This document shows, one piece after another, positions 21,555 to 44,356 of a stretch of 64,000 nt of DNA; positions within the stretch are counted from its first letter, which is position 1; every line of letters starts with the position of its first letter. Origin of the DNA: an uncultured Chitinophagaceae bacterium (lineage in GTDB: Bacteria > Bacteroidota > Bacteroidia > Chitinophagales > JADJOU01); NCBI GenBank assembly GCA_964465185.1, contig CAYXKX010000001.1, forward strand, positions 107,613 to 171,612, read 5' to 3'. The notes beneath the pieces are model-generated. The model had not been told where the DNA came from and searched no databases. It saw only the letters and a list, made by a program, of their open reading frames with translations. Made by a program: the position numbers and the translations under genes.

Positions 21555-21610
21555 AATAGTATTTCATTTATAGGTGTTCCATGAGTATAAATATATACAT
21601 TTTTTAATAA

Positions 21611-21646: not shown

Positions 21647-21675
21647 CAATACAACGATAAATTAGTTTTCTAATT

Positions 21676-27668: not shown

Positions 27669-27770
27669 TTAAAACAATGAATAATTAAAAATTAATAATT
27701 AATAATGAGATTGGACACAAGATTAACTTGCAGCAAAAATAGCTAATAACTAATAACTAACCAATAGAAA

Positions 27771-29786
27771 CTAGTAAGGGTCATACTCTTCCAGTAAAAT
27801 TCTAAACTCGCAGCGCCTGTTTCGCTGTCTCCCTTCGGCATTATCAGTACCATCTGGGTTTTCATTGGGGGCCAAAGGAACATACTCGCCATATCCTTTG
27901 CTCGTCAGCCTTTCAGGATATATTTTCTTATTGTCTATCAGGTAAAATCGAATGGCCTCTGCTCTTCTTTGGCTAAGGGTTTCGTTATATTCATCCGTGC
28001 CGCGGCTATCGGTGTGCGCACTGAGTTCTATTTTCAATGTGGGATTAGATCTTAAAACTGGAACGACCAAAGAGTCAATAATGTGCCTTGCCTCAGATGT
28101 CAAGGTAAAACTATCAAATTCAAATTCGACCAAGGGCAATAAAATGGGATTGAAATCTATTGGATCGAGCTCAAATTCTATGATATATAGCGAATCATTT
28201 TGTACCTCTATCAGTGCTTTTTTTCTATAAAATTTGGGTGAGTGAACTTCTATCTCATAGGTCGTTTTAATCATCAAATCTTTTATCACTGCAGTATCCT
28301 GTCCAACACCATTTTCAATAAAGGATAAATCATTGGAATCAATTTTAAATAGCTGGTAGGAAAAACCAGGAATCACTTCTTTGGTTTTTTTATTAATCGC
28401 TTGCACTTTTATTTTCCCAAATTTTTTATTTCTTAGGACGATTGTCATCTCAAAAAAGAAAATATCGTCACAACAATGTGGGTTGATGAGCGAATTTTCG
28501 CTATACCTATTCGAGACAAGGTAGCCTTCCGTTACTGATTTATTGGGGGTAAAAAAAACATCGTCTTGGGGAGAGTTTATCTCTTCTCCCAACGAAGATA
28601 CATTTTCAAAAAAACTACTTTTCAAAATGCTATAATATACATCGTGACCACCTTTGCCACCTCTCCCATTCGAACTAAAGTAGAGCGTATTTGTTGGCGT
28701 ATGATAATATGGGGTTATGTCATCTTTAGGAGTATTGATTTTGCCGCCTAGATTTCTAGGGGTACTAAAGGTCAAAGTACGAGTATTGTAGAAACTCATA
28801 AAAATATCAAATCCACCACGTCCACCCGGCCTATCACTGGCGAAAAAAAGGAAAGGAGAATTTCTTACTGCATCGAAACCAATGGAAACATGTGTATTGG
28901 AGGATTCAGGGGTTGTCAACTCAGGAATGAGTTCGGGTTTTGTCCAGACCTTATCTTTGAATTTGGATTGATAAATATCGCATTTATATTTCTTCAATTC
29001 TTCGCTGTACTTGCACCCACTCAAGTAGAGGACTCTTTTATCAAGGCTAAAGGCAAAGCTGCTGATTTCCATTTCGGGAGTTTCTAGGGGAAAATTTTGC
29101 AATTCCGTAAAGACTTCTTTTTGCCCTTTAGCCGAATAAATGGCTCTCGTAGCCATAATCTTTGATTTTTCCAACTTGGTGGATTTGTAATAATTCACAG
29201 CCTTCATATCTTGTGAACCAAAGAGAATACCTTCATTGGTTATGATAGGATTGAATTCAGCGCCTGAGGCATTTACTGGTCCTTCCAATGCATAGATTCG
29301 GGAAGAAATGGTATCGGCCGATTTGCCGCCAAAAGAATCGAGATACATTTTTAAGTTAGCCATGTGGGTATGCTCTGCTTTATATTCTGCCAACATCCCC
29401 TTTTTTTTAAGAAAGAACAAGGCGTAGTCTCTTGCTTTCTTTGGCTCCCGTTCGCTATTGTATAAAATGGCAGCATAGTAAAAGACCAATGGATGATCAT
29501 ATTTATTCTTTATTAACTCATTGATTAGTTGGAGAGCCAACTTATTCTCTCCAAGAATGTGAAGTAATTTAGCATATTCAAATTTTTGTAGGTCGCTTTC
29601 TATGCCTTTTTCAACGAGCGCATCGAAATATCGTTTTGCTAGGAAATAATCCTTAAGTTCAATAGCTTTAAGTGCTTGTTTAAAAATTTTGGATTTAGAA
29701 GAAGGGATTATTACATCCACCTTCTCCTGACTATGAGTAGAAAAAATGAAAAGTAAAAAAAAAGTAAAACATAGCCAACGCATCAT
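27771..29786 (-). CDS. OmpA-family protein with TPR, beta-propeller (PD40), CRD-like and OmpA_C domains (PG1058-like), coupled to the PorP/SprF-like gene
   Basis: PD40-like motifs FFASDRPGGRGGFDIF and YFSSNGRGGKGGHDVY. The OmpA_C region reads ELSAHTDSRGTDEYNETLSQRRAEA...NRRCEFRIL. The ATG at 29786 overlaps the upstream TGA stop (ATGA), so I prefer it to the ORF-track TTG at 29798. Confidence 0.75.
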   Translation of the reverse strand: MMRWLCFTFFLLFIFSTHSQEKVDVIIPSSKSKIFKQALKAIELKDYFLAKRYFDALVEKGIESDLQKFEYAKLLHILGENKLALQLINELIKNKYDHPLVFYYAAILYNSEREPKKARDYALFFLKKKGMLAEYKAEHTHMANLKMYLDSFGGKSADTISSRIYALEGPVNASGAEFNPIITNEGILFGSQDMKAVNYYKSTKLEKSKIMATRAIYSAKGQKEVFTELQNFPLETPEMEISSFAFSLDKRVLYLSGCKYSEELKKYKCDIYQSKFKDKVWTKPELIPELTTPESSNTHVSIGFDAVRNSPFLFFASDRPGGRGGFDIFMSFYNTRTLTFSTPRNLGGKINTPKDDITPYYHTPTNTLYFSSNGRGGKGGHDVYYSILKSSFFENVSSLGEEINSPQDDVFFTPNKSVTEGYLVSNRYSENSLINPHCCDDIFFFEMTIVLRNKKFGKIKVQAINKKTKEVIPGFSYQLFKIDSNDLSFIENGVGQDTAVIKDLMIKTTYEIEVHSPKFYRKKALIEVQNDSLYIIEFELDPIDFNPILLPLVEFEFDSFTLTSEARHIIDSLVVPVLRSNPTLKIELSAHTDSRGTDEYNETLSQRRAEAIRFYLIDNKKIYPERLTSKGYGEYVPLAPNENPDGTDNAEGRQRNRRCEFRILLEEYDPY

Positions 29787-30772
29787 AAACGGAGACAATC
29801 TATAGAATAATATTGATGTTTAGGAGCCTTGAAAATATAGGATAGGGATAATTCGTATACATTTTTCATCCCTTCTTGGCCTAGTCCAGAAGTGACTTGA
29901 TCATAGCTGACACCGATTCTCAAACTAGAGAGCCTTACGCCCACGACGGGTATTAAAGCATCGCTATTTCTGCTTATTCCCCATCGATATAAAACTCCTC
30001 CATAGATATCTGTTTTTTCATTCATAGTAAATTTTACTAAAGCCCCAGAATTGATATTATTCGTACTTGCAGTATTGATAATGCCAATCTTTGGCATTAA
30101 GGTTATGTTCTTCTTTAGCTGGTAATAAAGATGATAGTTGAATGTGAGTTTAAATGGTTGGTAAAATACGAAGTCAGACCCTTGATTTTGAGCTACGTAT
30201 AAAGCTGCTAGATCTAGGGTATGAAGGAGCTTTGTCTTTTGGATATTGATACTGGTTCCTATTCCTAAAAATGGGGTATAAATGTTTTCATTATTGAAAT
30301 TTTCTAAATGCGGAATACTATGTTGAAACTGACCTGTGCTCGGATCCCACTGTCTATCATAGGTCAGTTTGCTATAGTCAATCGATGTCATTCGCGTTCC
30401 GCCTTGGAATCCAATGCCTCCCAATATAGTTCGAGAGAATCTTTTTTGATAGGAGATGCTTCCTGACAAGCGAATTTGATGGTACATGAGATAACTCAAC
30501 TGATCACGAAGAAAGGAAAGCGAAAACGCCCAGTAATGGTCTTCTTTGTCAAGTTTGAACGTAGCATCTGCGTACATTGTAGTCAGAGGAGTGTTAAATT
30601 GAGACCACTGATTGCGATATTGCCCGCTCAATTTCAAATTGCCATCAAAATTGCCGATATGGGTAGGGTTGGCAAAAGCAGATGGTTCCCAAAACTGGGA
30701 GAAATGGATATCCTGACCCTGTAATCCAAGAGATAAAAAAATAAGAATACCAATCCCACTAGTTGTTTTCAA
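29783..30772 (-). CDS. Type IX secretion system membrane protein, PorP/SprF family
   Basis: 329 aa. After the signal peptide comes QDIHFSQFWEPSAFANPTHIG, the hallmark family N-terminus (D..FSQ(Y/F)......NPA..G), then beta-barrel-like sequence. TTG start. Confidence 0.8.
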   Translation of the reverse strand: MKTTSGIGILIFLSLGLQGQDIHFSQFWEPSAFANPTHIGNFDGNLKLSGQYRNQWSQFNTPLTTMYADATFKLDKEDHYWAFSLSFLRDQLSYLMYHQIRLSGSISYQKRFSRTILGGIGFQGGTRMTSIDYSKLTYDRQWDPSTGQFQHSIPHLENFNNENIYTPFLGIGTSINIQKTKLLHTLDLAALYVAQNQGSDFVFYQPFKLTFNYHLYYQLKKNITLMPKIGIINTASTNNINSGALVKFTMNEKTDIYGGVLYRWGISRNSDALIPVVGVRLSSLRIGVSYDQVTSGLGQEGMKNVYELSLSYIFKAPKHQYYSIDCLRL

Positions 30773-30904
30773 GTTTCAATAATTGTCTTTAGGTACATAC
30801 GAAGGTACAAAAAATTAGCTGAAAAGCAAAATTTATTCTCTTAAAGGTTTGGAGAAATGAAAAAAAAACCATATAACCTTTATCATTTATTGGAAAAATT
30901 ACTT

Positions 30905-30912
30905 TATATTTG
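30905..30912 (+). promoter_or_regulatory. Candidate Bacteroidota -7 promoter box (TATATTTG) for the 215-aa / 1498-aa gene pair
   Basis: Exact match to the TAnnTTTG consensus, 82 nt upstream of the ATG at 30995, in the 222-bp divergent intergenic region. A near-match, TATCTTGG, lies at 30945..30952. Confidence 0.3.
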
Positions 30913-30994
30913 TGATAGGAGTAGCTTTAATTAAGACCCTCACCTATCTTGGTTGAACTCTCTATAAAATACATAGTATGTAAAAACAATAAAT

Positions 30995-31642
30995 ATGAAA
31001 CGCTACATGATCCTAGTTTTATTTACCTTGGTCTATGTGGGACTAAATCTGAGTTCGGTCTATGGACAGTCGTCTGCGGTGCAGAGTATGTATAGCGCAC
31101 TGCCTATGCAGATTCGAATGGCAGAGCATCATGTCTTGATATCCAGTGACCATGGCAAGGATAGTTTAGTGAAAACAGACTATCTAGAGGTTTACAAATT
31201 TTCATTACCTGGCAACTATAGTCTTCGACTCATTCCTGATCCTCGTTTACGATACTGTAGCCATAATCACCTCGATTCTGTATATAAAATAAATATAGCA
31301 CCATATGCATTGACCTATCGTGCCGAGACCATCCGATTCTCAAAACCCCTTAGGGCAAAGCAGTCGCTAGATAATATAGTCATGGAAATCAGCGTATATC
31401 TAGAAGCTCATAATAGGGATAGCCTAGCCATAACGCATAGAGTCTTTACCACCTCGGGTATCGGCACGAGTATACGGGGAATCCTCGATAGTCGTATCAC
31501 CCATCTCCACCCCGGAGAGAATAGACTGCGATATCATTTGCAAGGTCTATGCTCCAATGAGACCTATATCCAGTTTGACTTTATAGACCCTCTCGGTGTC
31601 TTCCATCCTATAGGTTACCCATATTTATTAAAGCATGATTAG
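30995..31642 (+). CDS. Hypothetical secreted protein, coupled to the downstream giant gene
   Basis: Signal peptide MKRYMILVLFTLVYVGLNLSSVYGQ. 215 aa with no recognisable motif. Its stop overlaps or abuts the start of the next gene (ATGATTAGTATG). It is GC-rich relative to the window. Confidence 0.55.
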   Translation: MKRYMILVLFTLVYVGLNLSSVYGQSSAVQSMYSALPMQIRMAEHHVLISSDHGKDSLVKTDYLEVYKFSLPGNYSLRLIPDPRLRYCSHNHLDSVYKINIAPYALTYRAETIRFSKPLRAKQSLDNIVMEISVYLEAHNRDSLAITHRVFTTSGIGTSIRGILDSRITHLHPGENRLRYHLQGLCSNETYIQFDFIDPLGVFHPIGYPYLLKHD

Positions 31643-34600
31643 TATGCGATACCTAGGTTTATTTCTCATTTTTTGTATAGCTACGAACTGGCTAAGCGCC
31701 CAGTGTATTATCTCCTGCAATCAAAACGCCGGGGTATTTACCAATAATGACCCCAATACTATCGCTTATGACAATATGTCGTCGAGTCATCATAGTACAG
31801 TAGTGTCGGAGGATCAAGGATTTATGGTGTGGGGAGAAGGGGTAGATCAGAGCGGTTCTAATGCATTGAGTCCGAGGAGGATCGATGCATCGAACTATCC
31901 AGCACTGACTGGCACGGTCTATGCAGCCGGTGTAGGCTCAAGAGGAGGTCCTGCGCAACTTATTGTGCTAACCTCTACGGGGCTTTTCGTCTGTGGCGAT
32001 TCAGGGGCGGTATTGCACAATAGTCTGGTATCGACACCGAGTTTTCAAAAGCTGACAATCAATGGTAAGGGAGATGGGTTGCCTGTCGGCATCTCTCCCG
32101 ATAGTGTCAAAATGATGTTCGTCACTAGGGAAACAATCATTATCACCACTTGTAGTGGACGGGTCTTTGTCTTATCTCGCCATGCCAATGTGAGAGGCGA
32201 TAGTGGGCTAGGGACTACATCTAACTGGTCTCAGGTCATGACCAATACGGGCGTACCGCTGACAGGTATCATAGCTGCCCGCGGAGGGGCTCGCATGGGC
32301 TTTGCCCTTCGCAGCGACAATACGTTGTGGACATGGGGCGATGCAACACATCTAGGCGATGGCAGTTCACAGACCCATAGGAGTCTTGCTACTCAGATGG
32401 TCTTCCCCTCAGGCTGCACCAAAATAAGAATGATACAAGGCATGTATGGCGGTGTAGCAGGTCATAATTATTATGTATTGGATACCAATAATCAAGTATT
32501 TTGTCTAGGCCTTAACAGTTTTGGGCAGGTGATGGACACAGGACTATTCACCCGTACCACGTGGATACAAGCCAGATATGCTAATGGCACCCTGGTCAAT
32601 AATGCCAAGTGGATCTCTGCTAGTGAGCATGCACCTGATCTTGGAGTGGCTATCATTAATGCGAGCGCCCAGGTGTATACGGCTGGTTATAATTCAGGTA
32701 TGATGCTAGGTCGTCCCGTAAATGCTGGTGTCAATTATCTGGGCATACCTGCTGGTATATCTGCTACCGATTCTATTTTTTTCTGTGAAGTGGGGGGACA
32801 TACATCCGCCTATATCCGCAAGAATACAGCCCGCTATGGCTATGTAGGTCATAGAATCAATGGTTCTATGGGAGATAGTTCGGCGGTTAATACAACCGTA
32901 CTCCCTGTCAATTTTACCCTACCGCCCGTCGTGCGTATCTGTGGTACGAACTGCGATACGCCACGGGTGGTCAAGCTCCCCTATAACTGCATAGATAGTG
33001 TGGCTCGCTTTGTTTTTACGGGGCGGTTTAATACCAAGATTTATTTTCAGATCAATGGGGTAGCAGACAGTATCTATATCGGTGCAGGCAATAAGGCTAC
33101 CTATACCATACAGAAACCGACCACAGATATGGCTATCGTTATACCTCAGGTCAAGGGTTTGTACTGTGATTTTAATTTAAATCTGCGCGATACCCTGAGA
33201 CGCTTTGGCGTCAAGGACAGTGTCTTATCCATATGTCGCGGACAGTCGGTAAGTTTTAATGGAATAACCCGCAGCACGACAGGTCTCTACCGAGATACCC
33301 TGACAACCACCCTCGGCTGTGATAGTTTTATCAATTTAAATCTGCTGGTAAACGATTCTACCTCACAGACTTTAAATTTCAGTATATGCAAAAACAAACC
33401 AGTTTTATTCAATGGAGTCTTACGAAATACTGCTGGTTTTTACCGAGATACCTTGGTGAATAGTCGTGGATGTGACAGTTTTTTATATCTGAATCTATCT
33501 ATTCTCGACACCAGTTCTCGACATATCTATGACACAATATGCTCGAATCAGTCTTATTTTTTCAATGGACAGAACCAAACTCTTGCGGGTATGTACAGAG
33601 ATACCTTAGTCAATAGTCAAAGCTGTGATAGTTTTCTCTATTTACATCTCTTTGTCAAACCTACTTCGACCTATCATTATTCTCATACCATCTGCTCGAA
33701 TCAGTCCTATTTTTTCAATGGAGAGGGCAAAAGATTTCCAGGGGTGTATGGGGATACCCTCTTGAATAGTGTCGGCTGTGATTCGTTTGTATATCTTACC
33801 CTAAATGTAAACGATACTAGTAGAGGCATACTGTATGATACTATCTGTGCGAATCATCCAAAGTTGTTTAATGGCAAGTATCCGTCTATAACTGGTATAT
33901 ACCGAGATACGCTAATAAATCGACTGGGATGCGATAGTTTTGTGAATTTATATTTAACTGTAAAAGATACTTCTTCCAATCACTATTTTCAAACGACTTG
34001 CAAGAATCTACCCATATGGTTCAATGGTAACTTATTGAAGACATCTGGTGTTTACAAGGATACTTTGGTGAATCATCAGGGATGTGATTCGTTTGTATAT
34101 CTCAGCCTAAATGTAAACGATACGAGTGCGAGTAATAGATATGATACTATTTGCCGCAATTCTACCCTGTTTTTCAATAATCAGCTTCTATCACTAGCAG
34201 GACATTATCGCGATACATTGACCAATTCCTTGGGCTGCGATAGTATTATCCATTTATATTTAACTGTCAAATCAACGTCCTCATATAGCTATAGCGCTAA
34301 GATTTGTGCAGATAGTTTCTATAGTTTTAATGGCAAACAACATACACAATCTGGCACTTACTATGATACCTTGCAGAACAGTCAAGGTTGTGATAGTATT
34401 GTCACTTTATCTTTGCAGGTCATTAGTCTACCCGTGGCCATAGCAGGAGCTAACCAGACTCGAGTCCATTGTCCTGGAGACAGTATACGTCTGGGTAAGA
34501 GTGCACAGTCCAATTGCTCCTATGTTTGGAATCCTAATCTTGGATTAAATGCCCATACGGTCGCTCAACCTTGGACGAAAACGTCTGTTTCCACTTCATA

Positions 34601-36131
34601 CTATCTTTACGTATTGGATTTGGTCACAAAGTGCGCAAATCGAGATACTGTAGAGATAAATGTCGTCAATAGTAGCTTGAATGCAATAAAAGTGACTAAA
34701 CACTTGCGATGTTTTAATGACTCGTCAGGGGAGATTAGACTCACTGCGATGAATGGTTTTCCACCTTATCAGTATAAGAGAAGTGAAGGTTTATGGCAGG
34801 CTGATCCTGTGATTAAGGGGCTAAAGGCAGTCTCTGTAGATTCTTTTTATATAATGGATAGCCGAGGATGTCTGGTCTCCGATACTTATAGTATTCTGCA
34901 ACCAATGGCGATGACCATAAAAACGATTAGAGAGCAGCACTTACTATGTTACCAAGATAAAAAAGGTCTCATTGAAGTATCCGCAGAAGGTGGAATTTCG
35001 CCCTATCGCTATGCTTGGGATAGGTCGAGTAGCACCACTCCCTTAATAGATAATTTAGAGGCCGGGCAGTATGAGGTCACTGTTAAAGACGATAGTCTAT
35101 GCAAGGTCACCGAAAAGTATATTTTGACACAGCCAGATGCACTGTCGATAAAGTTAGATTTGATGATTAATAATAAATGTAAAGGCGACGCTATAGGTGA
35201 AATCAAAATAAATGCACTCGGGGGAATAGCACCTTACTCTTATTTCTGGAGTCACGGAACTCAATCTAACCATATATCCAATCTTCAGGATGGAGAATAT
35301 AAGCTTACCGTCGAGGATAAGAACAATTGTAAAAAATCTAGCGAATATAAGATAGGCAATCCTCCTTATTTAGAAATAGACACCATTATTGCATCTGATC
35401 TCGATTGTGATGACATAGGTAATATACAAATAAACGCGAGTCTGGGAGTTTCGCCTTTGAGCTATAGTATAGATAAAGCTAAGAGTTTTCGAAAAAACAA
35501 TAGCTTCTTAGTGACTGATTCTGGATTATACTTTATAGCTGTGAAGGGAGCTAATGGGTGTATAGTAAATGATAGCATTTATATGAAAGCCATAGATAGA
35601 ATTATTTTCAAGATTTTCCCCGAAGAGCAGAACATAGAGCTAGGAGAATCCGCACAACTTTCCTTTAAGATTTTAAAAGGGGACTCTTCGAGAATTAAAG
35701 ATTTGTTATGGACTCCAAGCACAGGTCTAAGCTGCACAGACTGCCCTGACCCAATCGCTACACCTTATACAACCCAGCTGTATAATTTAGAAATCAAAAA
35801 CTGGAATGGTTGTGTAACCCGCGACGATACCAGGATAAATGTGCACACAAACACTGAACTTTATATACCCAATAGTTTTTCTCCACTGGCAGATCATGCA
35901 GAAAACAAATTCTTTAAACTTTACTCTAAAAATATTTTACGAGCTAATATGAAAATATTTAACCGATGGGGTGAAAAAGTTTTTGATGGCGATCGCCCTG
36001 ATATAATGGGATGGGATGGATTTTTTAAAGGCGAAAGAGCTCCTCAAGGCGTATACACTTATACTGTTTCCATTACCTATCTCGATGGACGCAAGCTAGA
36101 AAAACAAGGTTCTCTGCATTTGTTCTGGTAG
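31635..36131 (+). CDS. Giant cell-surface protein: RCC1-like beta-propeller, 8 x 51-aa two-Cys repeats, 4 SprB-like repeats, type-B T9SS (gliding-motility-associated) C-terminal domain
   Basis: Signal peptide ending LSAQ (alternative start ATG at 31644). About seven WG..G.LG-type blades, for example LWTWGDATHLGDGS and FCLGLNSFGQV. The exact tandem repeats lie at 33228..34451. SprB-type modules (C.....G.I...A.GG..PY.Y.W) lie at about 34676..35592. The C-terminus reads YIPNSFSP......N..F......I....MKIFNRWGEKVF...GWDG......AP.GVYTY.V, at about 35854..36128. Confidence 0.8.
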   Translation: MISMRYLGLFLIFCIATNWLSAQCIISCNQNAGVFTNNDPNTIAYDNMSSSHHSTVVSEDQGFMVWGEGVDQSGSNALSPRRIDASNYPALTGTVYAAGVGSRGGPAQLIVLTSTGLFVCGDSGAVLHNSLVSTPSFQKLTINGKGDGLPVGISPDSVKMMFVTRETIIITTCSGRVFVLSRHANVRGDSGLGTTSNWSQVMTNTGVPLTGIIAARGGARMGFALRSDNTLWTWGDATHLGDGSSQTHRSLATQMVFPSGCTKIRMIQGMYGGVAGHNYYVLDTNNQVFCLGLNSFGQVMDTGLFTRTTWIQARYANGTLVNNAKWISASEHAPDLGVAIINASAQVYTAGYNSGMMLGRPVNAGVNYLGIPAGISATDSIFFCEVGGHTSAYIRKNTARYGYVGHRINGSMGDSSAVNTTVLPVNFTLPPVVRICGTNCDTPRVVKLPYNCIDSVARFVFTGRFNTKIYFQINGVADSIYIGAGNKATYTIQKPTTDMAIVIPQVKGLYCDFNLNLRDTLRRFGVKDSVLSICRGQSVSFNGITRSTTGLYRDTLTTTLGCDSFINLNLLVNDSTSQTLNFSICKNKPVLFNGVLRNTAGFYRDTLVNSRGCDSFLYLNLSILDTSSRHIYDTICSNQSYFFNGQNQTLAGMYRDTLVNSQSCDSFLYLHLFVKPTSTYHYSHTICSNQSYFFNGEGKRFPGVYGDTLLNSVGCDSFVYLTLNVNDTSRGILYDTICANHPKLFNGKYPSITGIYRDTLINRLGCDSFVNLYLTVKDTSSNHYFQTTCKNLPIWFNGNLLKTSGVYKDTLVNHQGCDSFVYLSLNVNDTSASNRYDTICRNSTLFFNNQLLSLAGHYRDTLTNSLGCDSIIHLYLTVKSTSSYSYSAKICADSFYSFNGKQHTQSGTYYDTLQNSQGCDSIVTLSLQVISLPVAIAGANQTRVHCPGDSIRLGKSAQSNCSYVWNPNLGLNAHTVAQPWTKTSVSTSYYLYVLDLVTKCANRDTVEINVVNSSLNAIKVTKHLRCFNDSSGEIRLTAMNGFPPYQYKRSEGLWQADPVIKGLKAVSVDSFYIMDSRGCLVSDTYSILQPMAMTIKTIREQHLLCYQDKKGLIEVSAEGGISPYRYAWDRSSSTTPLIDNLEAGQYEVTVKDDSLCKVTEKYILTQPDALSIKLDLMINNKCKGDAIGEIKINALGGIAPYSYFWSHGTQSNHISNLQDGEYKLTVEDKNNCKKSSEYKIGNPPYLEIDTIIASDLDCDDIGNIQINASLGVSPLSYSIDKAKSFRKNNSFLVTDSGLYFIAVKGANGCIVNDSIYMKAIDRIIFKIFPEEQNIELGESAQLSFKILKGDSSRIKDLLWTPSTGLSCTDCPDPIATPYTTQLYNLEIKNWNGCVTRDDTRINVHTNTELYIPNSFSPLADHAENKFFKLYSKNILRANMKIFNRWGEKVFDGDRPDIMGWDGFFKGERAPQGVYTYTVSITYLDGRKLEKQGSLHLFW
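33228..34451 (+). repeat. Eight perfect-period in-frame tandem repeats of 153 bp (51 aa) inside the 1498-aa gene
   Basis: I counted all eight units at exactly 51 aa. Consensus: (T/S)IC.......FNG......G.Y.DTL.N..GCDS...L.L.V.(D/S)TS. Some half-units are nearly identical at the DNA level, for example 33540.. versus 33693.. and 33777.. versus 34083... Confidence 0.85.
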
Positions 36132-36566
36132 CGTTCTTCAATACTCTATGCAGTTGTCGTTTGACTTCTCAAAAGTCAGCGAAATTATCAATTGAAAAAT
36201 TCAACAATTCGTATCAAAATTTTATAATTATATATCCAATATGATTTAGTTAATGAAGAGTTTTTTATGTGCATCCCTGCTTGTCAGCAGATAAGTATTT
36301 GGTTAATCTTAATCTGCGGCAAGATTTACACGAAATTATTGAGAAACAAGATTTTTTATTTTGCAATAATGTTATTAGAAATTAGACCATAACGGTTGTT
36401 GTTATTGACTCAACTAGTTTTTCAGCAGACCCGAACTATGGCTTAAATTACCTTAAATTTATCTTCAATATACTTCAACCTTATTTTACCGAACGCCTTG
36501 AGAAAAGAAAAGCCAAAAAATTTGATGGAAAGCTAGATTTTATTGGAATATTGTGGAAAAGTTTAC

Positions 36567-36574
36567 TATCTTTG
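36567..36574 (+). promoter_or_regulatory. Candidate Bacteroidota -7 promoter box (TATCTTTG) for the 2054-aa gene
   Basis: Exact TAnnTTTG match 30 nt upstream of the ATG at 36605. The same octamer plus a following T (TATCTTTGT) occurs upstream of the SprB-like gene at 56208. Confidence 0.45.
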
Positions 36575-36604
36575 TCAGTTCAAACCTTAAAATTTTCTTT
36601 TGTT

Positions 36605-39600
36605 ATGAGAAAATACTACTCAAACAGACTATTAGCTTTTAAATATCAGCTCCTACTATGGCTGATGATTTCCAATTTCTTTTCCTTGTATTCCCAAGTA
36701 TCATTAACGGCTACAGCAGGGGTAGCTACAGCCAGCTACACCACAGTGAGTCAGGCTTTTGATTCGATCAATAAAGGAGTTCATGGCGGTGATGTGGAAT
36801 TGACCATTACGGCAAACACTACAGAGCCAAATCTACCTATCGCATTATTGAAGCCCAATGTATCGGGTGGTTATACCAGTGTGAGGATAAGACCGCAAGG
36901 AGTCAGAACCATTGGATTAACTTCGCTAAATAATAACAGAGGTATTATAGAGCTATTTGGCGCTAGAGATGTTACCATTGATGGTGATGATCCTGCAGTA
37001 GCTGGTTTAGATAGAAGTTTGACTATAGGATTCAATACTGGTACGGCTTCCTTTAGTAATACGGCTGTGATACGTATCGGGTCTGTAGTGACTCCTTCAG
37101 ACTCAGCAGTGAATATTACTATCAAAAACTGCAATATAATTGGCTCAAGACCGAACACTATACATTTAGCTCCAAATTATGGAATCCTTATTAGTTCAAA
37201 CTCTATAGCGAATCTAACGACCCTAGTAGGTGGGTTAAGTGAACCAAATACTGCGACATTCGGCAGGAGAAATAGCAATATATTAATTGAAAACAATTCT
37301 ATTATTCGCTGTTATTATGGTATAGGTTCTTACTCTGCATCTGCTACACCTGCTAATGCTTTTTCGAATATTCGATTCGCTAAAAATCAAATTGGTATCA
37401 CTGGTGTGGCTGATAATTTTGTAGGAAGTAAAGGAATCGATTGTGAAGGCTCATCTACTGCAGCATCGCCATTAATAATTGAAGACAATGAAATTAGAGT
37501 GGGTACGAATACTAACTCGGGCTTCGTTGATAATACATACGGTATTTTATTGAGAAATGGAAATCCTTCTACAATTATTCGATATAATAGGCTGACTGAT
37601 ATTATGAATAATAACTCAGCAACAGGTGCAGGAGGTCTTATTGCAGGAATATTTGCTTTTGGTGGGGGTAATACGAATATAGATATTAATAATAATTTTA
37701 TCAAAGACGTCATAGGTGCTAGAAAGCAAACGAGTCTATTTTTAGAAGCTAACTATGGTATTTATGCGAATAGTATTGGGTCGGTGCGACTTAATCATAA
37801 TACGATAGCCTTCAATACGCCCAATACTCAAGGAACAGGATCGAATACCGTGAGTAGCTGTCTTGCGCTTATGGGTACTACGAATGTATTAGAATTAAAT
37901 AATAATATTCTTGTCAATAGAAATGCATCAACCAATGCCTATTGTATCGGGACTATGGCCAATCTGTCACCATTTGCGACCACAACTTTAAATAAGAATT
38001 GTTATTTCTATCCAAATGGTTCAATGGCCAATATAACTCCTGCTACATTTGCGAACTGGCAATTTGTAACGGGCAGGGATCAAAATAGTTTTCTCGAAAA
38101 TCCGCCATTTATATCTGCAAGTGACCTCCACATCCAAACAGGAGTGGTGACTCTTTTAGAGAGCAATGCCGTGCCAACAGGCTATGCTTTTGATGTAGAC
38201 TTACAAGCTCGCCCTAACCCTACGGACATTGGGGCAGATGAATTTGCAGGAACGGCTTATCAGCCCCCCGTTATCTTGAGCGTAAGTCATACTCCGACAG
38301 CGCAGAGCTGTGCTACTGCTACAGCACGAACAGTGCAGGCTATTTTTACTACTTTAGGTAATGCACTAGATAGTATTGTAGTTGAATACTCTATAAATGG
38401 AGGCGCCTTAAATTATTTAAGAATGAATTCGGTTTCCGCTTTAGGGTTTACCAGATTGATACCTGCTGTGACCCCATTGAATGCGATAGTTCGCTACCGT
38501 GTGATGGCGTTAACTTCTGTGAGGGATACAGTGTTTTCCAATTATTTATACTATAATGATAATACTGCCAGTAGAGCTTTGATGCCCACTTTAGTATCTG
38601 ATCCACCGCAGGCTTGTGTTACAAGTACCGTGCAGTTAAACTATCGGTTTTCACCTGATCCCACGGGTTTTATTTTTCCACCGAATGTCACAGATACAGT
38701 GATGCAGACCAATATAAGCAATGTTAAGTTGACCACTATTGACAATACAACCCCAGCTACCAACTCCTTAGTCGGAACCATCGGAACTGCTACTGGTGTG
38801 CGGGGAGCCTATTCTAATTTTAGAAATTTTGTAGCAGATACGGTAGGTTTGGGTAGAAGTTATCCTGCATCAGTTACGGGCTCTACTACAGCCAATGTTA
38901 AGCTATATTTCGCTGCTTTTGTAGATTTTGATGGGGATGGAAGTTTTACTAGCGCCAACGAAATGGTGTTTAATACGACTCAAGCTAGAACCAATGGAAC
39001 TCGAACGGAAAATTTCAGCCTCTACATCCCACCCAATGCGAGACCAGGAAAAACCTGCATACGGTTTATATGCAGTCACGCACCAATAACCAATTCATTT
39101 TTTAATGTTTTCCGCGGTGAGGTAGAAGACTACTCAATTTATATTAGACCATTATCGACTGTGTGGAAAACAGGTGCTACCACCATTGGGGGCAATAATC
39201 CACAAAGTTTTACCTTAACGGTCTTACCATCTGCTGTTTATATAGAAATGACGGACTCTTCTGCATGCAGTGCGGCTTCAAATCCATTAAGTATAACAGC
39301 ATCTGCTGCTGGTATGAATGTAATCCTTTCTGCTCCTGCATCGTCGTGCTACAATACTCCCGTTCTTATTAGAGCTAATGTCACAGGTGGCTGTCCTCCA
39401 TATAGCTATAGCTGGAGCAACAATGCATCGCTGAACGCTCCGTCACAAATAGTAACACTTCTGAATGATACTCTATTTCTCACGGTGACTGCGACAGATA
39501 AAAATGGCTCACAATATTCTAGAATAGGTTTCATTAGACCAAATAATCCTAGGCTAACGTTTGTACCAGACACAACAATAATCTGCAATAGGGGTACAGC

Positions 39601-42600
39601 GAACATTACCGTTTCTACTGCAGCCACAGACTCTGCATATTGGTATCAGTCAGCCACTGCGAATCCATTCCAATTTGACTTTATTGGAAAAACGTATACC
39701 ACGCCTACATTGAATTCTACCAAGGACTTCTATGTAGCAGCCTTAAGATCCACTGCTGACTCAGTAGGAAAAATGAACACTACTGGAACTCCGGTTAGCA
39801 CAGGAGTCATGCCTACCGCAGGCCTACAATTTGATGCTGTCGAGCCAGTTATTATAAGGGATTGCCAAATGTATTTAACAGGTATCGCAGGAGCTACTGT
39901 TAGTATAGGCCTATTGGATAAATATGGAACCTTAATAGCTCAGCTAAATAATTACGCTTTAAGTCCTGTCCCTGCCGTTATAACGACACCGACTAGAATA
40001 CCGCTTAATTTTGCACTGCCGACACCAGATACTGGCTATAAGCTCATTTTACTAGGATTTACCAATCTAACGGGGCTTACATATAATACCGGGAGCGCGG
40101 GTTACACCTATCCATTTACCACCCCTGCGAATCGTCCATTGATAATTCAAAAGGCCTATCAGATTGGAAATCCAGCGGCTACGGCCTATTTCTATTTTTA
40201 TAATATTAGAGTGTTGAAAGGAGTCTGTATAGGTCAGAGAGATACCACTACTGCCAAAGTAACCCCACCGATAGTGCCAAAACTTTTCGAGGATTTAAAA
40301 TACACTTTATTATGTAAGGATGATACTTTAAATATTAAGGTAAAATCGGATTCATTCGGTAATCGATTTGTGTGGTTGAAAGATGGGAATGTGATTCAAA
40401 ACTTTTCGGTAAGTCCTCCATCAGATACGTTTAACGATTCGTTTTATAGAGTACCAATCTCTAAGCCAACCGATACGGGATTGTATCAGGTAAAAATATT
40501 TAGCTCAAAATTCTGTACACGAGATACTTTCTCAAGAGAGGTGCGAGTTTCCTTCCATAAGGAGCCTGAATTTGTTAAGGATTTATCACCAGTTGATATT
40601 TGTTTGAATAGAAATACAAAGCTGAGTGTAACCACAAAGAATGCAAAATTCTTTAAATGGTATAAGGATACTACTATTTATAAATCTGGGACAGATACCA
40701 TAAACCCTGAGTATAACATTACAAATGCTAGTTTCTCGGAATCGGGGATTTATCATGTCGTAGCTACAGATAGCAATTATTGTAGAGATGTAAAATCTCT
40801 CATGGTAAAGGTGACTGTGCATGACACGCCAATTTTCGTGACCCAACCAATAGATACGGTTGTATGTGCGGGACAAAGGTATGTAATAAAATCAAAACCA
40901 ATAAACGCCTTAACCTATCAATGGTATAAGGATAATGGAATTATGAATGGTTTTATCAAGGATTCTTTAACCCTCTTCTCTTCAAAAATAGGAGATTCTG
41001 GTAGTTATCGACTCATTGCTTCAAGCTACCCTGGGTGCCCTGAAGCTATTTCTAATATAGCCAAGTTGGCTGTGAATCCAAGTCCGATAATCCAAGGATT
41101 TTATCCTCAAGAAATGAAATTCTGCGAAGGACAGAAGTTGAAAATCGAGGCAAGTGCCTTAAACAAACAAGAAATACAGTGGTATAGGGGAAGTACATTA
41201 TTGGTTGCACAAGACTCTGTGGTTATCCCTAATGCTGGATTAGCGAGTGCGGGTAAATATTCTTTTATCGTGAAAGCGTTCAACAAATGTCAAGATATCA
41301 AATCGGATACGATAGATGTAAAGGTTATTAATAGACCGACAGTAAGTGGAACAAGACCTGCGCTTATAGCATGCCAGGATGGAGAGTTTAAGTTTGGATT
41401 TAGTTCTACCAATGGAAAGATTTATCAATGGTACAAAAATGGGGTGCCAATTCAAGGGAAAATAGATTCTCAACTATGGATTCAATTCTTATCTGATAAG
41501 GATAATGGGAGCTATAACGTCTCTGTAAATAGTGATGCAGTATGTCCTGAGGTCAAATCAAACAGCTTCAATATCGATATTAAGACGAAACCTCAAATAA
41601 CGCTTCACCCGGAAGGTAGGATCGCTTGCATGGGTGAAACGGTTCAGTTAGTCGCCAATACTAATTTTGCTACCGGTTTTCAATGGTTCAAGGATGGTAG
41701 TCAAATACCTGGTGCTACGACCAATACATTTGTGATTAATAATTTGACAGGCAGCAATTCAGGAAAGTATTGGTTACGCGTTTCTGGCACCTCGCCTTGT
41801 CTTCCAATTTTAACAGATACTGCCGTCGTCGTTCATCGATCTGGACAAACAAATGCGGTAGTTTCGCTTGTATCGGCCTATAACCTTGAAGAACAATGCA
41901 CGGACGCAGACGATTGGACTTACTATGCTACTAAGCAAGAACCAAACAAGTATTTATTTGCTGTAAACAAAAATGGAAATAGTATAACTGGGACAGCCGA
42001 TGTCGTCGTTCGACCTAATACTTTTGTTAGTGTTCACAATACAGGCAAACAATATACTGCCTCCATTATGTTGAAACGATTTTGGAATTTCAAACTTACA
42101 TCAGGAGTTATCAATAATCCTATCGAAGTAAAGTTCTACGTCAATCAATCAGAGTTGGATGATTTGGAAAATAAGATGCTTGAAACCCAAAATTTATATG
42201 GCGATCAGCTCGAACTTGAGAATAAGGATGTACGATGGTTCAAATCAAAGAGCTTACCTTTTACCAATGCTTTATTGGGAGGGGTTCGTGGAAACCGCTT
42301 TAATTTCGACTCTGTCGTATTTGGTCAGTTTGTAGATGGCACAGAAAATGGATTGAAGTATTTCATTTTTCCAGATATTCTGGATGCAGGAGGAGGAACG
42401 GGCGCTTATTTGTTTAAAGGAGGTAGTCGATACCTAGGGTCGATTCAAAGTGCTAGCACAGATATGTCTGCTGGCATAAGCCCCAATCCAAATAACGGGC
42501 AATTTAACTTAAGCATAGTATCCAAAACGCTAGGTAAGGTCAATCTAATATTGATTAATAATCTAGGACAGACGGTCTATAATGCTGAACTTAAATTGAC

Positions 42601-42715
42601 AGGTTTAGATTCTGAGTTTCCAATGAATATACCAAACTTGGCCAATGGCTTATACCAACTTGTTATTTCCAAGGATGATGTTCATACATCAATAAAACTA
42701 CAAATCGAAAAATAG
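36605..42715 (+). CDS. Giant cell-surface protein: right-handed beta-helix region, GEVED domain, about six Ig (I-set-like) modules, type-A T9SS C-terminal sorting domain
   Basis: Signal peptide MRKYYSNRLLAFKYQLLLWLMISNFFSLYSQ, from the ATG at 36605. The ORF-track TTG at 36551 lies upstream of the predicted -7 box. Asn/Gly/Ile-rich beta-helix rungs include NILIENNSI, IEDNEI and DINNNFI. GEVED motif FRGEVEDYSIYI. Ig modules carry W(Y/F)K(D/N)G......(D/N)SG.Y. The C-terminus reads ISPNPNNGQFNL....GLYQLVI. Confidence 0.8.
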   Translation: MRKYYSNRLLAFKYQLLLWLMISNFFSLYSQVSLTATAGVATASYTTVSQAFDSINKGVHGGDVELTITANTTEPNLPIALLKPNVSGGYTSVRIRPQGVRTIGLTSLNNNRGIIELFGARDVTIDGDDPAVAGLDRSLTIGFNTGTASFSNTAVIRIGSVVTPSDSAVNITIKNCNIIGSRPNTIHLAPNYGILISSNSIANLTTLVGGLSEPNTATFGRRNSNILIENNSIIRCYYGIGSYSASATPANAFSNIRFAKNQIGITGVADNFVGSKGIDCEGSSTAASPLIIEDNEIRVGTNTNSGFVDNTYGILLRNGNPSTIIRYNRLTDIMNNNSATGAGGLIAGIFAFGGGNTNIDINNNFIKDVIGARKQTSLFLEANYGIYANSIGSVRLNHNTIAFNTPNTQGTGSNTVSSCLALMGTTNVLELNNNILVNRNASTNAYCIGTMANLSPFATTTLNKNCYFYPNGSMANITPATFANWQFVTGRDQNSFLENPPFISASDLHIQTGVVTLLESNAVPTGYAFDVDLQARPNPTDIGADEFAGTAYQPPVILSVSHTPTAQSCATATARTVQAIFTTLGNALDSIVVEYSINGGALNYLRMNSVSALGFTRLIPAVTPLNAIVRYRVMALTSVRDTVFSNYLYYNDNTASRALMPTLVSDPPQACVTSTVQLNYRFSPDPTGFIFPPNVTDTVMQTNISNVKLTTIDNTTPATNSLVGTIGTATGVRGAYSNFRNFVADTVGLGRSYPASVTGSTTANVKLYFAAFVDFDGDGSFTSANEMVFNTTQARTNGTRTENFSLYIPPNARPGKTCIRFICSHAPITNSFFNVFRGEVEDYSIYIRPLSTVWKTGATTIGGNNPQSFTLTVLPSAVYIEMTDSSACSAASNPLSITASAAGMNVILSAPASSCYNTPVLIRANVTGGCPPYSYSWSNNASLNAPSQIVTLLNDTLFLTVTATDKNGSQYSRIGFIRPNNPRLTFVPDTTIICNRGTANITVSTAATDSAYWYQSATANPFQFDFIGKTYTTPTLNSTKDFYVAALRSTADSVGKMNTTGTPVSTGVMPTAGLQFDAVEPVIIRDCQMYLTGIAGATVSIGLLDKYGTLIAQLNNYALSPVPAVITTPTRIPLNFALPTPDTGYKLILLGFTNLTGLTYNTGSAGYTYPFTTPANRPLIIQKAYQIGNPAATAYFYFYNIRVLKGVCIGQRDTTTAKVTPPIVPKLFEDLKYTLLCKDDTLNIKVKSDSFGNRFVWLKDGNVIQNFSVSPPSDTFNDSFYRVPISKPTDTGLYQVKIFSSKFCTRDTFSREVRVSFHKEPEFVKDLSPVDICLNRNTKLSVTTKNAKFFKWYKDTTIYKSGTDTINPEYNITNASFSESGIYHVVATDSNYCRDVKSLMVKVTVHDTPIFVTQPIDTVVCAGQRYVIKSKPINALTYQWYKDNGIMNGFIKDSLTLFSSKIGDSGSYRLIASSYPGCPEAISNIAKLAVNPSPIIQGFYPQEMKFCEGQKLKIEASALNKQEIQWYRGSTLLVAQDSVVIPNAGLASAGKYSFIVKAFNKCQDIKSDTIDVKVINRPTVSGTRPALIACQDGEFKFGFSSTNGKIYQWYKNGVPIQGKIDSQLWIQFLSDKDNGSYNVSVNSDAVCPEVKSNSFNIDIKTKPQITLHPEGRIACMGETVQLVANTNFATGFQWFKDGSQIPGATTNTFVINNLTGSNSGKYWLRVSGTSPCLPILTDTAVVVHRSGQTNAVVSLVSAYNLEEQCTDADDWTYYATKQEPNKYLFAVNKNGNSITGTADVVVRPNTFVSVHNTGKQYTASIMLKRFWNFKLTSGVINNPIEVKFYVNQSELDDLENKMLETQNLYGDQLELENKDVRWFKSKSLPFTNALLGGVRGNRFNFDSVVFGQFVDGTENGLKYFIFPDILDAGGGTGAYLFKGGSRYLGSIQSASTDMSAGISPNPNNGQFNLSIVSKTLGKVNLILINNLGQTVYNAELKLTGLDSEFPMNIPNLANGLYQLVISKDDVHTSIKLQIEK
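40263..41845 (+). repeat. About six tandem Ig-like modules (about 88 aa each) within the 2054-aa gene
   Basis: Recurring pairs are FVWLKDGN...DTGLYQV, FKWYKDTT...ESGIYHV, YQWYKDNG...DSGSYRL, IQWYRGST...SAGKYSF, YQWYKNGV...DNGSYNV and FQWFKDGS...NSGKYWL. Confidence 0.6.
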
Positions 42716-42725
42716 TTAGGACTGC

Positions 42726-43358
42726 TTGGAAGAAGAGGGAGATTTTTATAGAACGAATACCAGAACACCGAAGGAGAGAGAAATTTATTTTAACGATAGA
42801 TTTTTCCCCCATTTAAGTACGCTATACAATTATGCATTCTACCTCACCAAAGAGGAGGAGGATTCAAATGATTTGGTTCAAGACACTTTTGTCAAGGCTT
42901 TCCGATTTATGGATAACTTTCAAGAGGGCACCAATGAAAAAGCCTGGTTGTTTAAAATCATGAAGAATGGTTTTATAAACGATTATAGGAAAAAGTCGGT
43001 AAAACCAACGCACTATTCATTTGATAATATCATAGAAACTAAGGATGGAGATTCTAATGATGAAAATTCGAGTCAAGACCTGGATGGAGTCGTAGTCAAA
43101 GATAATACGGATCATTTTAAATCAATGATGGGCGATGAAGTGACTACCTCACTGGAGAGATTGCCTGCGGATTATAGACAAATTATCATTTTGGCAGATC
43201 TAGAAGATTTTACCTATGAAGAACTGAGTGATATTCTAGAGATACCAATCGGCACAGTCCGTTCGAGGTTATTTAGAGCTAGAAATATGTTGAAATCAAA
43301 GCTGCAACTTTATGGAGCTAAAATGGGTTATAAAGATAAACGAAATAAAAATGATTAA
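42726..43358 (+). CDS. ECF-type RNA polymerase sigma-70 family factor
   Basis: Region 2 reads DLVQDTFVKAFR....F.....AWLFKIMKN..I and region 4 reads YEELSDILEIPIGTVRSRLFRAR. TTG start 10 nt after the giant gene's stop. There is no in-frame ATG in the first roughly 60 codons. Confidence 0.8.
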   Translation: MEEEGDFYRTNTRTPKEREIYFNDRFFPHLSTLYNYAFYLTKEEEDSNDLVQDTFVKAFRFMDNFQEGTNEKAWLFKIMKNGFINDYRKKSVKPTHYSFDNIIETKDGDSNDENSSQDLDGVVVKDNTDHFKSMMGDEVTTSLERLPADYRQIIILADLEDFTYEELSDILEIPIGTVRSRLFRARNMLKSKLQLYGAKMGYKDKRNKND

Positions 43359-43360
43359 TC

Positions 43361-43615
43361 ATGGCAGATAATGCTTGTCAAGACATAAGGAATCAAGTCA
43401 TGTACTACATAGACAATGAATTGTCTGAAGACAAACTAATAGGACTTGTAAGTCACATAAACGACTGTGCGGAATGTCAAGAATACATATGTCATGAGCA
43501 AGATTTGAAGACAAAAATCTGCCAGAAACTGAAGGATAATTATATTTGTCGCTGCGATGTACAACGACTCAAAGATTCTATCAAAGATAAAATCAGTGGT
43601 TTTTTTCAATCCTAA
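43361..43615 (+). CDS. Small soluble zinc-finger (ZAS, zf-HC2-like) anti-sigma factor
   Basis: 84 aa. The motif H32-x3-C36-x2-C39 ([12 protein letters not shown]) is present along with five more cysteines. No hydrophobic segment long enough for a TM helix. It starts 2 nt after the sigma gene's stop. Confidence 0.65.
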
Positions 43616-43644
43616 TTTTTTTATTTAACCTCAAGGTTGTTCCA

Positions 43645-44349
43645 ATGAAGTACAAGAGAGTATTGCTCAAACTAAGTGGCGAGGCCCTTATGGGAAGCCG
43701 AAATTATGGACATGATCCTGAAAGATTAAAGCAATATGCTGAAGACATAAAATCTGCTGTGGATTTGGGTGTTGAATTGGCTTTAGTCATAGGTGGGGGA
43801 AATATTTTTCGCGGTAAGGATGCTGCTGAAATCGGTATTGACAAAGTACAAGGTGACCACATGGGCATGCTGGCTACAGTGATCAACGGTCTGGCTCTGC
43901 AAAGCTCAATTGAGAATTTGGGGATATATACGAGATTATTGAGCGCGGTGCGTATGGATCAGATAGCAGAACCATATATAAAAAGACGGGCTATACGGCA
44001 CATGGAAAAAGGGCGGGTTGTCATATTCGGCGCGGGAACTGGAAATCCTTACTTCACCACCGATACTGCTGCAGCGCTTCGCTCAATTGAAATCAATGCG
44101 GATATCGTCATGAAAGGCACCAATGTGGATGGCATCTATTCCGCAGATCCACGCAAGGACCCGAATGCCAAGAAATTTGACAAACTCAGCTTCAAAGAAG
44201 TCTATGAAAATAAGTACGAGGTCATGGATTTGACAGCTTTTACCCTTTGTGAAGAAAATAAAAAACCCATTATGGTCTTTGATATGAATCAGCCGGGAAA
44301 TCTAGCGAGAATATTGAAAGGAGAAGCTTTGGGGACATTGGTGTCTTAA
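43645..44349 (+). CDS. pyrH: UMP kinase
   Basis: Contains [23 protein letters not shown] and [17 protein letters not shown]-like motifs. 234 aa. Confidence 0.9.
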
Positions 44350-44356
44350 TAATTTA

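Follow-up and report, generated by a model that had tools for sequence, protein, structure and literature searches.

The question raised by this locus is whether a run of contiguous type IX secretion system (T9SS) genes makes up one adhesin island or an assembly of parts. The window, i.e., the whole stretch of 64,000 nucleotides that was analyzed, comes from an uncultured Chitinophagaceae bacterium (contig CAYXKX010000001.1, positions 107,613 to 171,612 of the forward strand). Its block of interest (27771-43615) holds a PorP/SprF-family gene (hereafter PorP) paired with a PorE-like OmpA_C gene, a small gene for a 215-aa protein followed by a giant cargo gene of type B, a second giant of type A, and genes for an extracytoplasmic function (ECF) sigma factor and a ZAS anti-sigma factor. 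The initial annotation took this block for a self-contained island, with the sigma/anti-sigma pair as part of the adhesin module. As a description it held well: the ATGA coupling of PorP to the OmpA_C gene, the 222-bp divergent spacer, the secreted 215-aa protein coupled to a 1498-aa protein with a type-B sorting domain, and the sigma start 10 nt past the stop of the type-A giant were all found at the coordinates given, with minor corrections. None of the open reading frames (ORFs) in the block is a chance one, since orthologs at 60-100% identity exist for every one of them. As an interpretation it held only in part, because the region is a three-unit mosaic in which each unit has its own history: the PorP/PorE-like pair, a two-gene cassette carrying the small gene and the type-B giant, and the type-A giant with its sigma and anti-sigma factors. 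We put the probability that this three-unit mosaic, together with the mechanism proposed below, is the best explanation at a little over 60%.

Domain calls were made with Pfam and NCBIfam profiles against curated cut-offs, relatives are given as loci (L001-L117), and the limits of the cassette were set by blastn against L001, L006, and L009. The loci of PorP orthologs at 90%, 84%, 77%, and 60% identity, and those at 86% identity of the sigma factor, share one common backbone. Read as the reverse complement of the window, its order is HSDR_N, a TPR protein, pyrH, the ZAS anti-sigma, the ECF sigma, and the type-A giant (~2020 aa), followed, divergent from the giant, by PorP, the PorE-like gene, and a 2-oxoacid dehydrogenase E2 gene. 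The cassette is missing between PorP and the type-A giant in six related lineages (L006-8, L009, L010, L035, L038/39); the L006 and L009 backbones pass from window position ~30717 directly to ~36516. The cassette itself (window 30895-36162) corresponds to L001 9903-15165 (74-78% identity), where it occupies another locus. In L001 and L002, a seventh lineage whose small protein is 70% identical, the 215-aa/type-B pair sits between PMT_2 glycosyltransferase genes and rpoD/secA, and PorP, the PorE-like gene, the type-A giant, and the ECF sigma are all missing from its vicinity. The 215-aa gene and the type-B giant are found together in every such relative, and at the window's site the cassette occurs only in the window and in its closest relatives, L003-5 (90% DNA identity). 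By parsimony, the cassette was probably inserted into the spacer between porP and the type-A giant before the window and L003 lineages parted, in an ancestor shared by both.

The divergent PorP and 215-aa genes are separated by a spacer of 222 bp (30773..30994). We saw no flanking direct or inverted repeats at the cassette edges and no integrase or tRNA gene. From the downstream limit of the cassette to the point where the backbone resumes, ~350 bp (36163-36515) are common only to L003 and unmatched in L001 and L006/L009; no ORF of at least 80 aa was seen in this segment, nor any Rfam match. In the L003-5 loci, type-A cargo genes take up another 9.9 kb, placed between window positions 30916 and 30954. 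In L003 (95-9959), this insert begins just 3′ of the cassette's TAnnTTTG box and encodes a type-A protein of 2049 aa, an ORF of 106 aa, and another type-A protein, of 653 aa; neither these extra genes nor the flanks of L001 have a counterpart within the window. With this additional insert, the porP/type-A-giant spacer resembles a hot spot, prone to gaining T9SS cargo genes.

The PorP and PorE-like genes stay together with or without the cassette. Their pairing is kept in L006-10, L033-35, and L039, and where PorP is down to 47% identity the two genes still lie together, 4 nt apart, among gcvT, tatA, and comEC, with no giant adjacent and with the nearest sigma-domain gene, an unrelated one, ~5 kb upstream. 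The pair is inherited vertically and stands alone. The type-A giant, its conserved neighbor on the backbone, was considered as a client of PorP and rejected, given a CTD (C-terminal domain) that is type-A-like and a linkage that is lost at 47% PorP identity. PorP scores above both curated cut-offs (TIGR03519: 124.7 vs. 90.55; PF11751: 95.8 vs. 22.3), and its orthologs range from 100% to 40% identity, the one at 90% being annotated as a Chitinophagales metagenome-assembled genome (MAG). It is a divergent member of its family, at 96 bits vs. 267-311 for the PorPs of L016 and L023. The partner ORF has its first internal Met at residue 5, and this ATG, at 29786, shares an ATGA with the stop codon of PorP. 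Full-length profile alignments give the partner 220 bits with CHU_0125_OmpA (NF053607; residues 33-668 aligned) and 199 bits with T9SS_PorE (NF052230), and because both scores fall far under the equivalog cut-offs (620 and 600, respectively) we call the product PorE-like and not a PorE equivalog. In Pfam, it shows OmpA_C (63 bits), PD40 at 17.5, under the cut-off of 20.9, and no TPR or CarboxypepD_reg match; its homologs in L016, L019, and L023 have the full TPR/PD40/CarboxypepD_reg/OmpA set.

The C-terminus of PorP (29783-29800) has the tail ...SIDC[LM]RL, invariant in the clade. Distant PorP homologs end ...CPRF, and the operon-encoded PorPs of L016, L017, and L023 end SPRFF or SPRYF, without Cys. 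Since the C-x-C tail of SprF forms a disulfide bond with GldK (PMC12635249), the tail Cys of the window PorP may mark a different mode of attachment, and we offer this as a lead only.

Elsewhere, the four T9SS parts do form an operon. In L016, L017, and L023, the order is small gene, giant (CHU_C at 88-96 bits), PorP, and PorE-like, all co-oriented; the L017 PorP was recognized with a self-made profile, and the PorE-like gene of that locus is cut by the locus end. In L019, PorP, PorE-like, small gene, and giant lie on one strand. The four genes recur together in these loci, and the window's PorP-like, PorE-like, 215-aa, and type-B genes are thus a recognizable module, here rebuilt by relocation, with PorP and the PorE-like gene divergent and upstream instead of following the cargo in one operon. 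The check in relatives that the initial annotation had called for gives a divided answer: the four-gene module recurs, and the whole block is not syntenic.

The third unit is a conserved triad of type-A giant, sigma, and ZAS, tied to the type-A giant rather than to the cassette. Orthologs of the giant (2017-2111 aa) are the backbone neighbor of PorP in relatives, and the distance from giant stop to sigma start is 7-17 nt in L006, L009, L010, L035, L038/39, and L040; in the window it is 10 nt (TTG at 42726), with the start and the N-terminus conserved. At ~50% sigma identity, the type-A giant is no longer present. L040 (2-6960; 65% sigma identity, GC 31%) holds giant, sigma (17-nt gap), and ZAS contiguously, with pyrH and the remaining backbone gone, so that the triad outlasts its surroundings there. 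The giant had been described as a 2054-aa type-A protein, which is borderline as to class (PF18962: 27.1 vs. 27.0; TIGR04183: 21.6, under 23) and probably too long, the likely product being 2036 aa from the conserved ATG at 36605. The L009, L010, and L035 orthologs have confident precomputed Por_Secre_tail matches. The sigma gene may share a transcript with the giant.

The ECF assignment of the sigma factor is firm (TIGR02937: 84.9 vs. 42.9, with sigma regions 2 and 4 and an H-x3-C-x2-C partner), and the best NCBIfam matches of the two proteins, TIGR02947 (SigH_actino) and TIGR03988 (RsrA), stay under the SigR/RsrA equivalog level (142.1 vs. 251.55 and 29.9 vs. 62.5). The anti-sigma has seven Cys, and no hydrophobic stretch long enough for a transmembrane segment was seen in it. 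Because it is short, carries the ZAS motif, and lacks such a stretch, the pair looks like a cytoplasmic SigR/RsrA-like thiol-redox switch rather than a cell-surface signaling system. The likeness to SigR-RsrA and SigH-RshA lies in an ECF sigma followed by a short soluble H-x3-C-x2-C anti-sigma; the differences are the sub-equivalog scores, the Bacteroidota host, and a sigma gene that begins 7-17 nt past an adhesin gene of 6 kb in all the relatives examined, to as low as 65% sigma identity.

Promoter-like boxes are in keeping with separate units. The Bacteroidota -7 promoter consensus is TAnnTTTG, and one such box lies upstream of the small gene, inside the cassette, and another upstream of the type-A giant, where it is kept in six of the seven sequences aligned for that region. 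Generic scans were of little help: sigma-70 promoters (49 sites vs. 43±7.5 expected) and terminators (6 vs. 9.3±3.3) were both at chance, with methods ill-suited to Bacteroidota, and an Rfam scan of 27000-44500 gave zero matches.

Table 1. Features of the locus and of one paralog outside it, in window coordinates.
Feature	Coordinates	Strand	Basis or remark
Second PorE-like paralog, 718 aa, outside the block	14071..16227	+	T9SS_PorE 175 bits, CHU_0125 163 bits
PorE-like OmpA_C protein, 671-675 aa	27771..29786/29798	-	PF00691 63 bits
PorP/SprF-family outer-membrane protein, 329 aa	29783..30772	-	TIGR03519, PF11751
Two-gene cassette, ~5.3 kb (promoter box, small partner gene, type-B giant gene)	30895..36162	+	blastn
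Promoter-like box TATATTTG (TAtaTTTG)	30905..30912	+	fits TAnnTTTG; 83 nt upstream of the 215-aa gene, inside the cassette
Small partner protein, 215 aa	30995..31642	+	signal peptidase I (SPI) signal peptide (..VYG↓Q); unannotated family
Type-B T9SS giant, 1495-1498 aa	31635..36131	+	signal peptide (..SAQ↓C), CHU_C CTD
RCC1-like propeller head, ~aa 23-455	31701-32999	+	profile match
Eight 51-aa two-Cys repeats, ~aa 527-935	33213-34439	+	stalk of the type-B giant
CHU_C CTD, aa 1411-1495	35865-36119	+	PF13585
Promoter-like box TATCTTTG (TAtcTTTG)	36567..36574	+	fits TAnnTTTG; 31 nt upstream of the type-A giant ATG
Type-A T9SS giant, 2036 aa if read from the conserved ATG	36605..42715 (ORF from 36551)	+	GEVED, Ig_3, Ig_7, Por_Secre_tail CTD
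ECF sigma, 210 aa, SigH/SigR-like, TTG start	42726..43358	+	TIGR02937
ZAS anti-sigma, 84 aa	43361..43615	+	zf-HC2 (PF13490) 26.2 vs. 22.2; H32-x3-C36-x2-C39

Within the cassette, comparison with relatives shows the 215-aa protein to be a true and conserved companion of the giant. When looked up exactly, the window's protein returned zero records, and a word-based search gave only nine close clusters; an exhaustive profile search, with clusters at 50% identity, recovered 208 clusters at E ≤ 1e-3, 111 of them at E ≤ 1e-10, nearly all 205-250 aa long. The family is unmatched in Pfam (76 members checked, none convincing) and in NCBIfam (three members checked, the window's included). Its hallmarks are an SPI signal peptide that ends in ..A↓Q, together with the motifs F-x2-P-G-x-Y, C-x-H, and Y-[IL]-[QM]-F-D-F; the window's protein has the length, the signal peptide, the motifs, and the RCC1-like-headed neighbor typical of the family, and its C88-x-H90 is nearly invariant. 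It has no CTD, and no lipobox was seen.

A genome scan found 22 small-family loci in Crocinitomicaceae, Flavobacterium, Saprospiraceae, Parapedobacter, Chitinophaga, Edaphocola, and Chitinophagaceae, a sample drawn with the YIMFDF subset alignment and biased towards that subfamily. The carriers are affiliated to Flavobacteriales, Chitinophagales, Saprospirales, and Sphingobacteriales, and cultivable ones are among them (Flavobacterium solisilvae, Parapedobacter indicus, Chitinophaga). When these loci, the metagenomic loci, and the window are taken together, the small gene adjoins an ORF for a head-bearing T9SS protein in 28/28 cases, 5′ of it in all but one, with a gap of 2-29 nt in the 18 downstream pairs that were measured. 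Seeming exceptions to the linkage come down to frameshifts in long-read MAGs (L018, L019), to a contig end (L022), and to a reversed order (L024). In the window, the two ORFs overlap by 8 nt, and a second ATG, one nt past the 215-aa stop, is the giant start called in relatives. Distances among small proteins co-vary with those among heads (r = 0.76; Mantel, 0/2000 permutations), which shows co-inheritance; contact is not thereby proven.

Variant arrangements were also seen. L015 (1-17009) has tandem modules in the order giant, PorP, small, giant; in L030 (6416-13323), one small gene is flanked by two head-bearing type-A paralogs; and in L024 (7230-10597), the head protein precedes the small gene. 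In L117, a 210-aa family member (E = 1.8e-58) overlaps the start of a head-CHU_C protein, and the syntenic L116 (both are Flavobacterium-like) has only a 137-bp spacer where the partner would be, the partner having been lost; neither locus has an adjacent PorP.

With a deeper alignment, AlphaFold2 (AF2) gave an all-beta model with pLDDT 90.6 and pTM 0.79 (10 close sequences had given pLDDT 60), which we read as a tandem Ig-like fold. A Foldseek search of this model against the PDB gave a best E of 2.6e-3, none at or below 1e-3, with TM-scores of at most 0.34, and the matches were generic Ig-like sandwiches. A PapD-like relationship was considered and rejected, no match having reached E ≤ 1e-3. 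What remains is a likeness of architecture to the PapD/FimC chaperones, i.e., ~200-230 aa, a signal peptide, two Ig-like beta-sandwich domains, and a surface-fiber gene beside, with no sequence or structural kinship detected (9fxs_C, type 1 pilus assembly: probability 0.16, TM 0.15).

The small partner tracks the head of the giant and not its secretion signal, because the head is conserved while the stalk and CTD class vary. The first ~450 residues are 38-44% identical across 24 loci and contain four invariant Cys; profile matches are to the HERC2 RLD (2.7e-13), RCC1 (6e-8), and UVR8 (1e-4), and Pfam and NCBIfam scans gave nothing beyond a weak RCC1-like match. Beyond the head, the proteins differ in length (~690 to >3300 aa), stalk repeats, and CTD class, which is CHU_C in L016, L017, L023, L001, L003, L117, and the window, and Por_Secre_tail in L020 and L030. 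The type-B assignment of the window giant comes from CHU_C (44.0 vs. 27), with TIGR04131 at 30.6, under 35, as befits a divergent member. Of the profiles named in the initial annotation, TIGR03519 and OmpA_C pass, whereas TIGR04131 and TIGR04183 are below cut-off; CHU_C passes and PF18962 is marginal. SprB repeats lie between the two-Cys repeats and CHU_C. The two-Cys stalk repeat has the motif C..FNG..G.Y.DTL..GCDS[FI]..L.L.V and a DNA periodicity of 153 nt at 60-78% identity; it has no Pfam match, and Tandem Repeats Finder (TRF) detected no DNA tandem repeats. In the F. psychrophilum surfome, an RCC1-repeat T9SS protein was found on cells and lost in gld mutants (PMC5682007), which fits, by analogy, the surface display of RCC1-like T9SS proteins.

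Work on Flavobacterium johnsoniae supplies the frame for a mechanism. Type-B cargo requires a cognate PorP/SprF shuttle (PMC12618676, PMC9143113), and six porP-like genes of F. johnsoniae adjoin porE-like genes (Gorasia 2022, PMC9143113); five such operons also hold a type-B substrate (2025 study, PMC12618676). The PorP-PorE-like complexes are proposed to anchor non-motile type-B adhesins statically to the cell wall (PMC9143113, PMC12618676). The closest parallel to the window is Fjoh_3952 (cargo), Fjoh_3951 (shuttle), and Fjoh_3950 (PorE homolog), where a type-B adhesin likewise adjoins a PorP/SprF gene coupled to a TPR/propeller/OmpA_C PorE-like gene. The window differs in that PorP and the PorE-like gene are divergent and upstream instead of downstream in an operon, the adjacency is recent and not kept in relatives, and an extra small gene precedes the cargo gene. 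The P. gingivalis PG1035-PorP-PorE model has PorP bound to the type-B CTD and PorE to peptidoglycan (Gorasia 2022, PMC9143113); there the three genes are dispersed and PorP/PorE belong to the core T9SS, whereas in the window PorP and its PorE-like partner share one operon, and neither PorE-like paralog of the window reaches the PorE equivalog score. The sprCDBF genes of F. johnsoniae resemble the cassette in having accessory genes 5′ of a giant type-B gene and a PorP-family carrier gene adjacent. SprC and SprD are much larger than the 215-aa family. SprF has a C-x-C tail bonded to GldK and no PorE partner (PMC12635249), whereas the window PorP has a single tail Cys and a PorE-like partner.

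We therefore propose the following as a conditional scheme. Both cassette proteins would enter the periplasm via Sec. The small protein, in which neither a CTD nor a lipobox was seen and which for that reason we infer to remain in the periplasm, would bind or mature the propeller head before T9SS export, as a chaperone or co-factor. The giant would then exit through the T9SS by means of CHU_C, displaying its head distally as a fibrillar adhesin. PorP and the PorE-like protein would act as outer-membrane carrier and peptidoglycan anchor for this type-B cargo: the PorP-like barrel would hold the giant on the surface and the PorE-like protein would tie the barrel to peptidoglycan, giving a static adhesin, as proposed for Fjoh_3952/3951/3950. 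The thiol-redox switch of the sigma/anti-sigma pair would be linked to the adhesins by position only.

Several points weigh against this explanation. The cassette occurs in L001/L002 without a nearby PorP, and six lineages keep PorP and the PorE-like gene without the cassette. Insertion, as opposed to repeated loss, is argued from parsimony, and the role of the small protein from linkage only. From the head side, three of the four short head-bearing proteins sampled have no partner, only L117 having one, so not every head requires the small partner. The window PorP (96 vs. 267-311 bits) and its CHU_C (44 vs. 88-96) are, moreover, both divergent.

This last point can be turned around: the window PorP might be the carrier of the type-B giant, since the unusual divergence of both PorP and CHU_C is what a matched pair might show. 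The competing account is that the adjacency is coincidental, with PorP and the PorE-like protein serving as the lineage's general (core or orphan) T9SS pair. On this account, the cassette would have come to lie beside the pair because the spacer accepts insertions, and the giant's carrier may be either the window PorP or a PorP encoded at another place. A counterpart exists in F. johnsoniae, where three orphan type-B substrates share one orphan shuttle, Fjoh_1677 (PMC12618676). The conservation of the pair without adjacent cargo to 47% identity speaks for coincidence, as does the 9.9-kb cargo insert of L003-5 in the same spacer, which suggests an insertion hot spot; the invariant C-tail Cys also recalls track-linked carriers and not the Cys-less SPRFF PorPs of the operons. 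However, the same cargo family is elsewhere encoded with PorP and PorE-like genes, selection for clustering would yield just such a relocation, and the shared divergence of PorP and CHU_C fits a matched pair. We consider coincidence rather doubtful, and it is the alternative that survives best.

A second alternative concerns only the small protein, which could be a surface subunit exported while bound to the folded head (T9SS hitch-hiking) as part of the adhesin tip, or a disulfide-linked partner via Cys88. The strictness of its linkage to the head, whatever the CTD type, is compatible with this, and C88-x-H90 together with the four invariant head Cys could support a covalent or metal-mediated complex; intermolecular disulfides are known in the T9SS/gliding machinery (PMC12635249). 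Yet the small protein has no CTD of its own, and L116 lost the partner and kept the head protein, as would be more natural for a helper than for a structural subunit. To our knowledge, T9SS hitch-hiking has no precedent, and we regard this alternative as unlikely. The weakest account, one dedicated island of PorP/PorE-like, 215-aa protein, both giants, and sigma/anti-sigma, inherited and regulated as a unit, can point to contiguous parts, tight couplings, the joint recurrence of four T9SS parts elsewhere, and the constant giant-sigma spacing, and it is nonetheless very improbable and largely refuted, given that whole-block synteny fails, that the cassette and the type-A giant each have a TAnnTTTG box, the giant's conserved in relatives, that the sigma gene travels with the type-A giant and never lies beside the cassette where the latter is found elsewhere, and that an apparently soluble ZAS anti-sigma cannot directly sense the cell surface.

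Returning to the three-unit mosaic, a bolder extension of it is possible, and we raise it tentatively. The 215-aa family could be a previously unrecognized accessory class for T9SS cargo, a periplasmic tandem-Ig protein binding the RCC1-like head of fibrillar adhesins that form a widespread family, and the small protein could be needed for head folding, for guarding against premature adhesion, or for tip function. As a second possibility of the same tentative kind, a single transcript of the conserved type-A giant/SigR-like sigma/ZAS triad would carry both a surface adhesin and a switch for thiol stress. If true, the first idea would make a parallel, without relatedness, to the chaperone-fiber pairs of other secretion pathways.

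Housekeeping genes surround the block: pyrH follows the anti-sigma gene, and among those in the flanks are aroB/aroA, an ABC exporter, and the 2-oxoacid dehydrogenase E2. Between the last two lies a 305-aa ORF (25398-26315, minus strand) without a Pfam or NCBIfam match, and L035 has an ORF of equal length at that position. The second PorE-like paralog (Table 1) is also under the equivalog cut-offs and has a 719-aa ortholog in L006; it is followed by a 465-aa ORF (16236-17633, plus strand), a pair kept in L006, where the counterpart of the 465-aa ORF is a beta-CASP/RMMBL metallo-beta-lactamase protein. T9SS cargo genes are abundant in the window beyond the block. At 18561-23277 (minus strand), a 997-aa hybrid sensor kinase (Reg_prop, Y_Y_Y, His_kinase) adjoins a 533-aa type-A T9SS cargo with fn3, GEVED, and Por_Secre_tail domains.

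How new is this arrangement? The initial annotation held that it was not a described system, which is too broad for the combination of type-B cargo, PorP-like, and PorE-like proteins, already known from F. johnsoniae, and fair for the 215-aa partner. In the databases and papers searched, we found no description of the small-partner family and its strict tie to RCC1-like-headed T9SS proteins, nor of the giant-sigma-ZAS triad. For annotation, the lesson is that contiguous T9SS genes are not to be taken as one system without a synteny check. For the assembly of such "operons", the locus shows a cargo cassette moving beside a stand-alone PorP/PorE-like pair, in a spacer that is accumulating T9SS cargo. 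Work on type-B secretion has so far centered on the CTD, the PorP/SprF shuttle, and the PorE-like anchors; a small secreted protein tied strictly to the N-terminal head of a single cargo family would bring in a fourth participant, one that acts at the other end of the fiber, and this idea is directly testable in the cultivable carriers.

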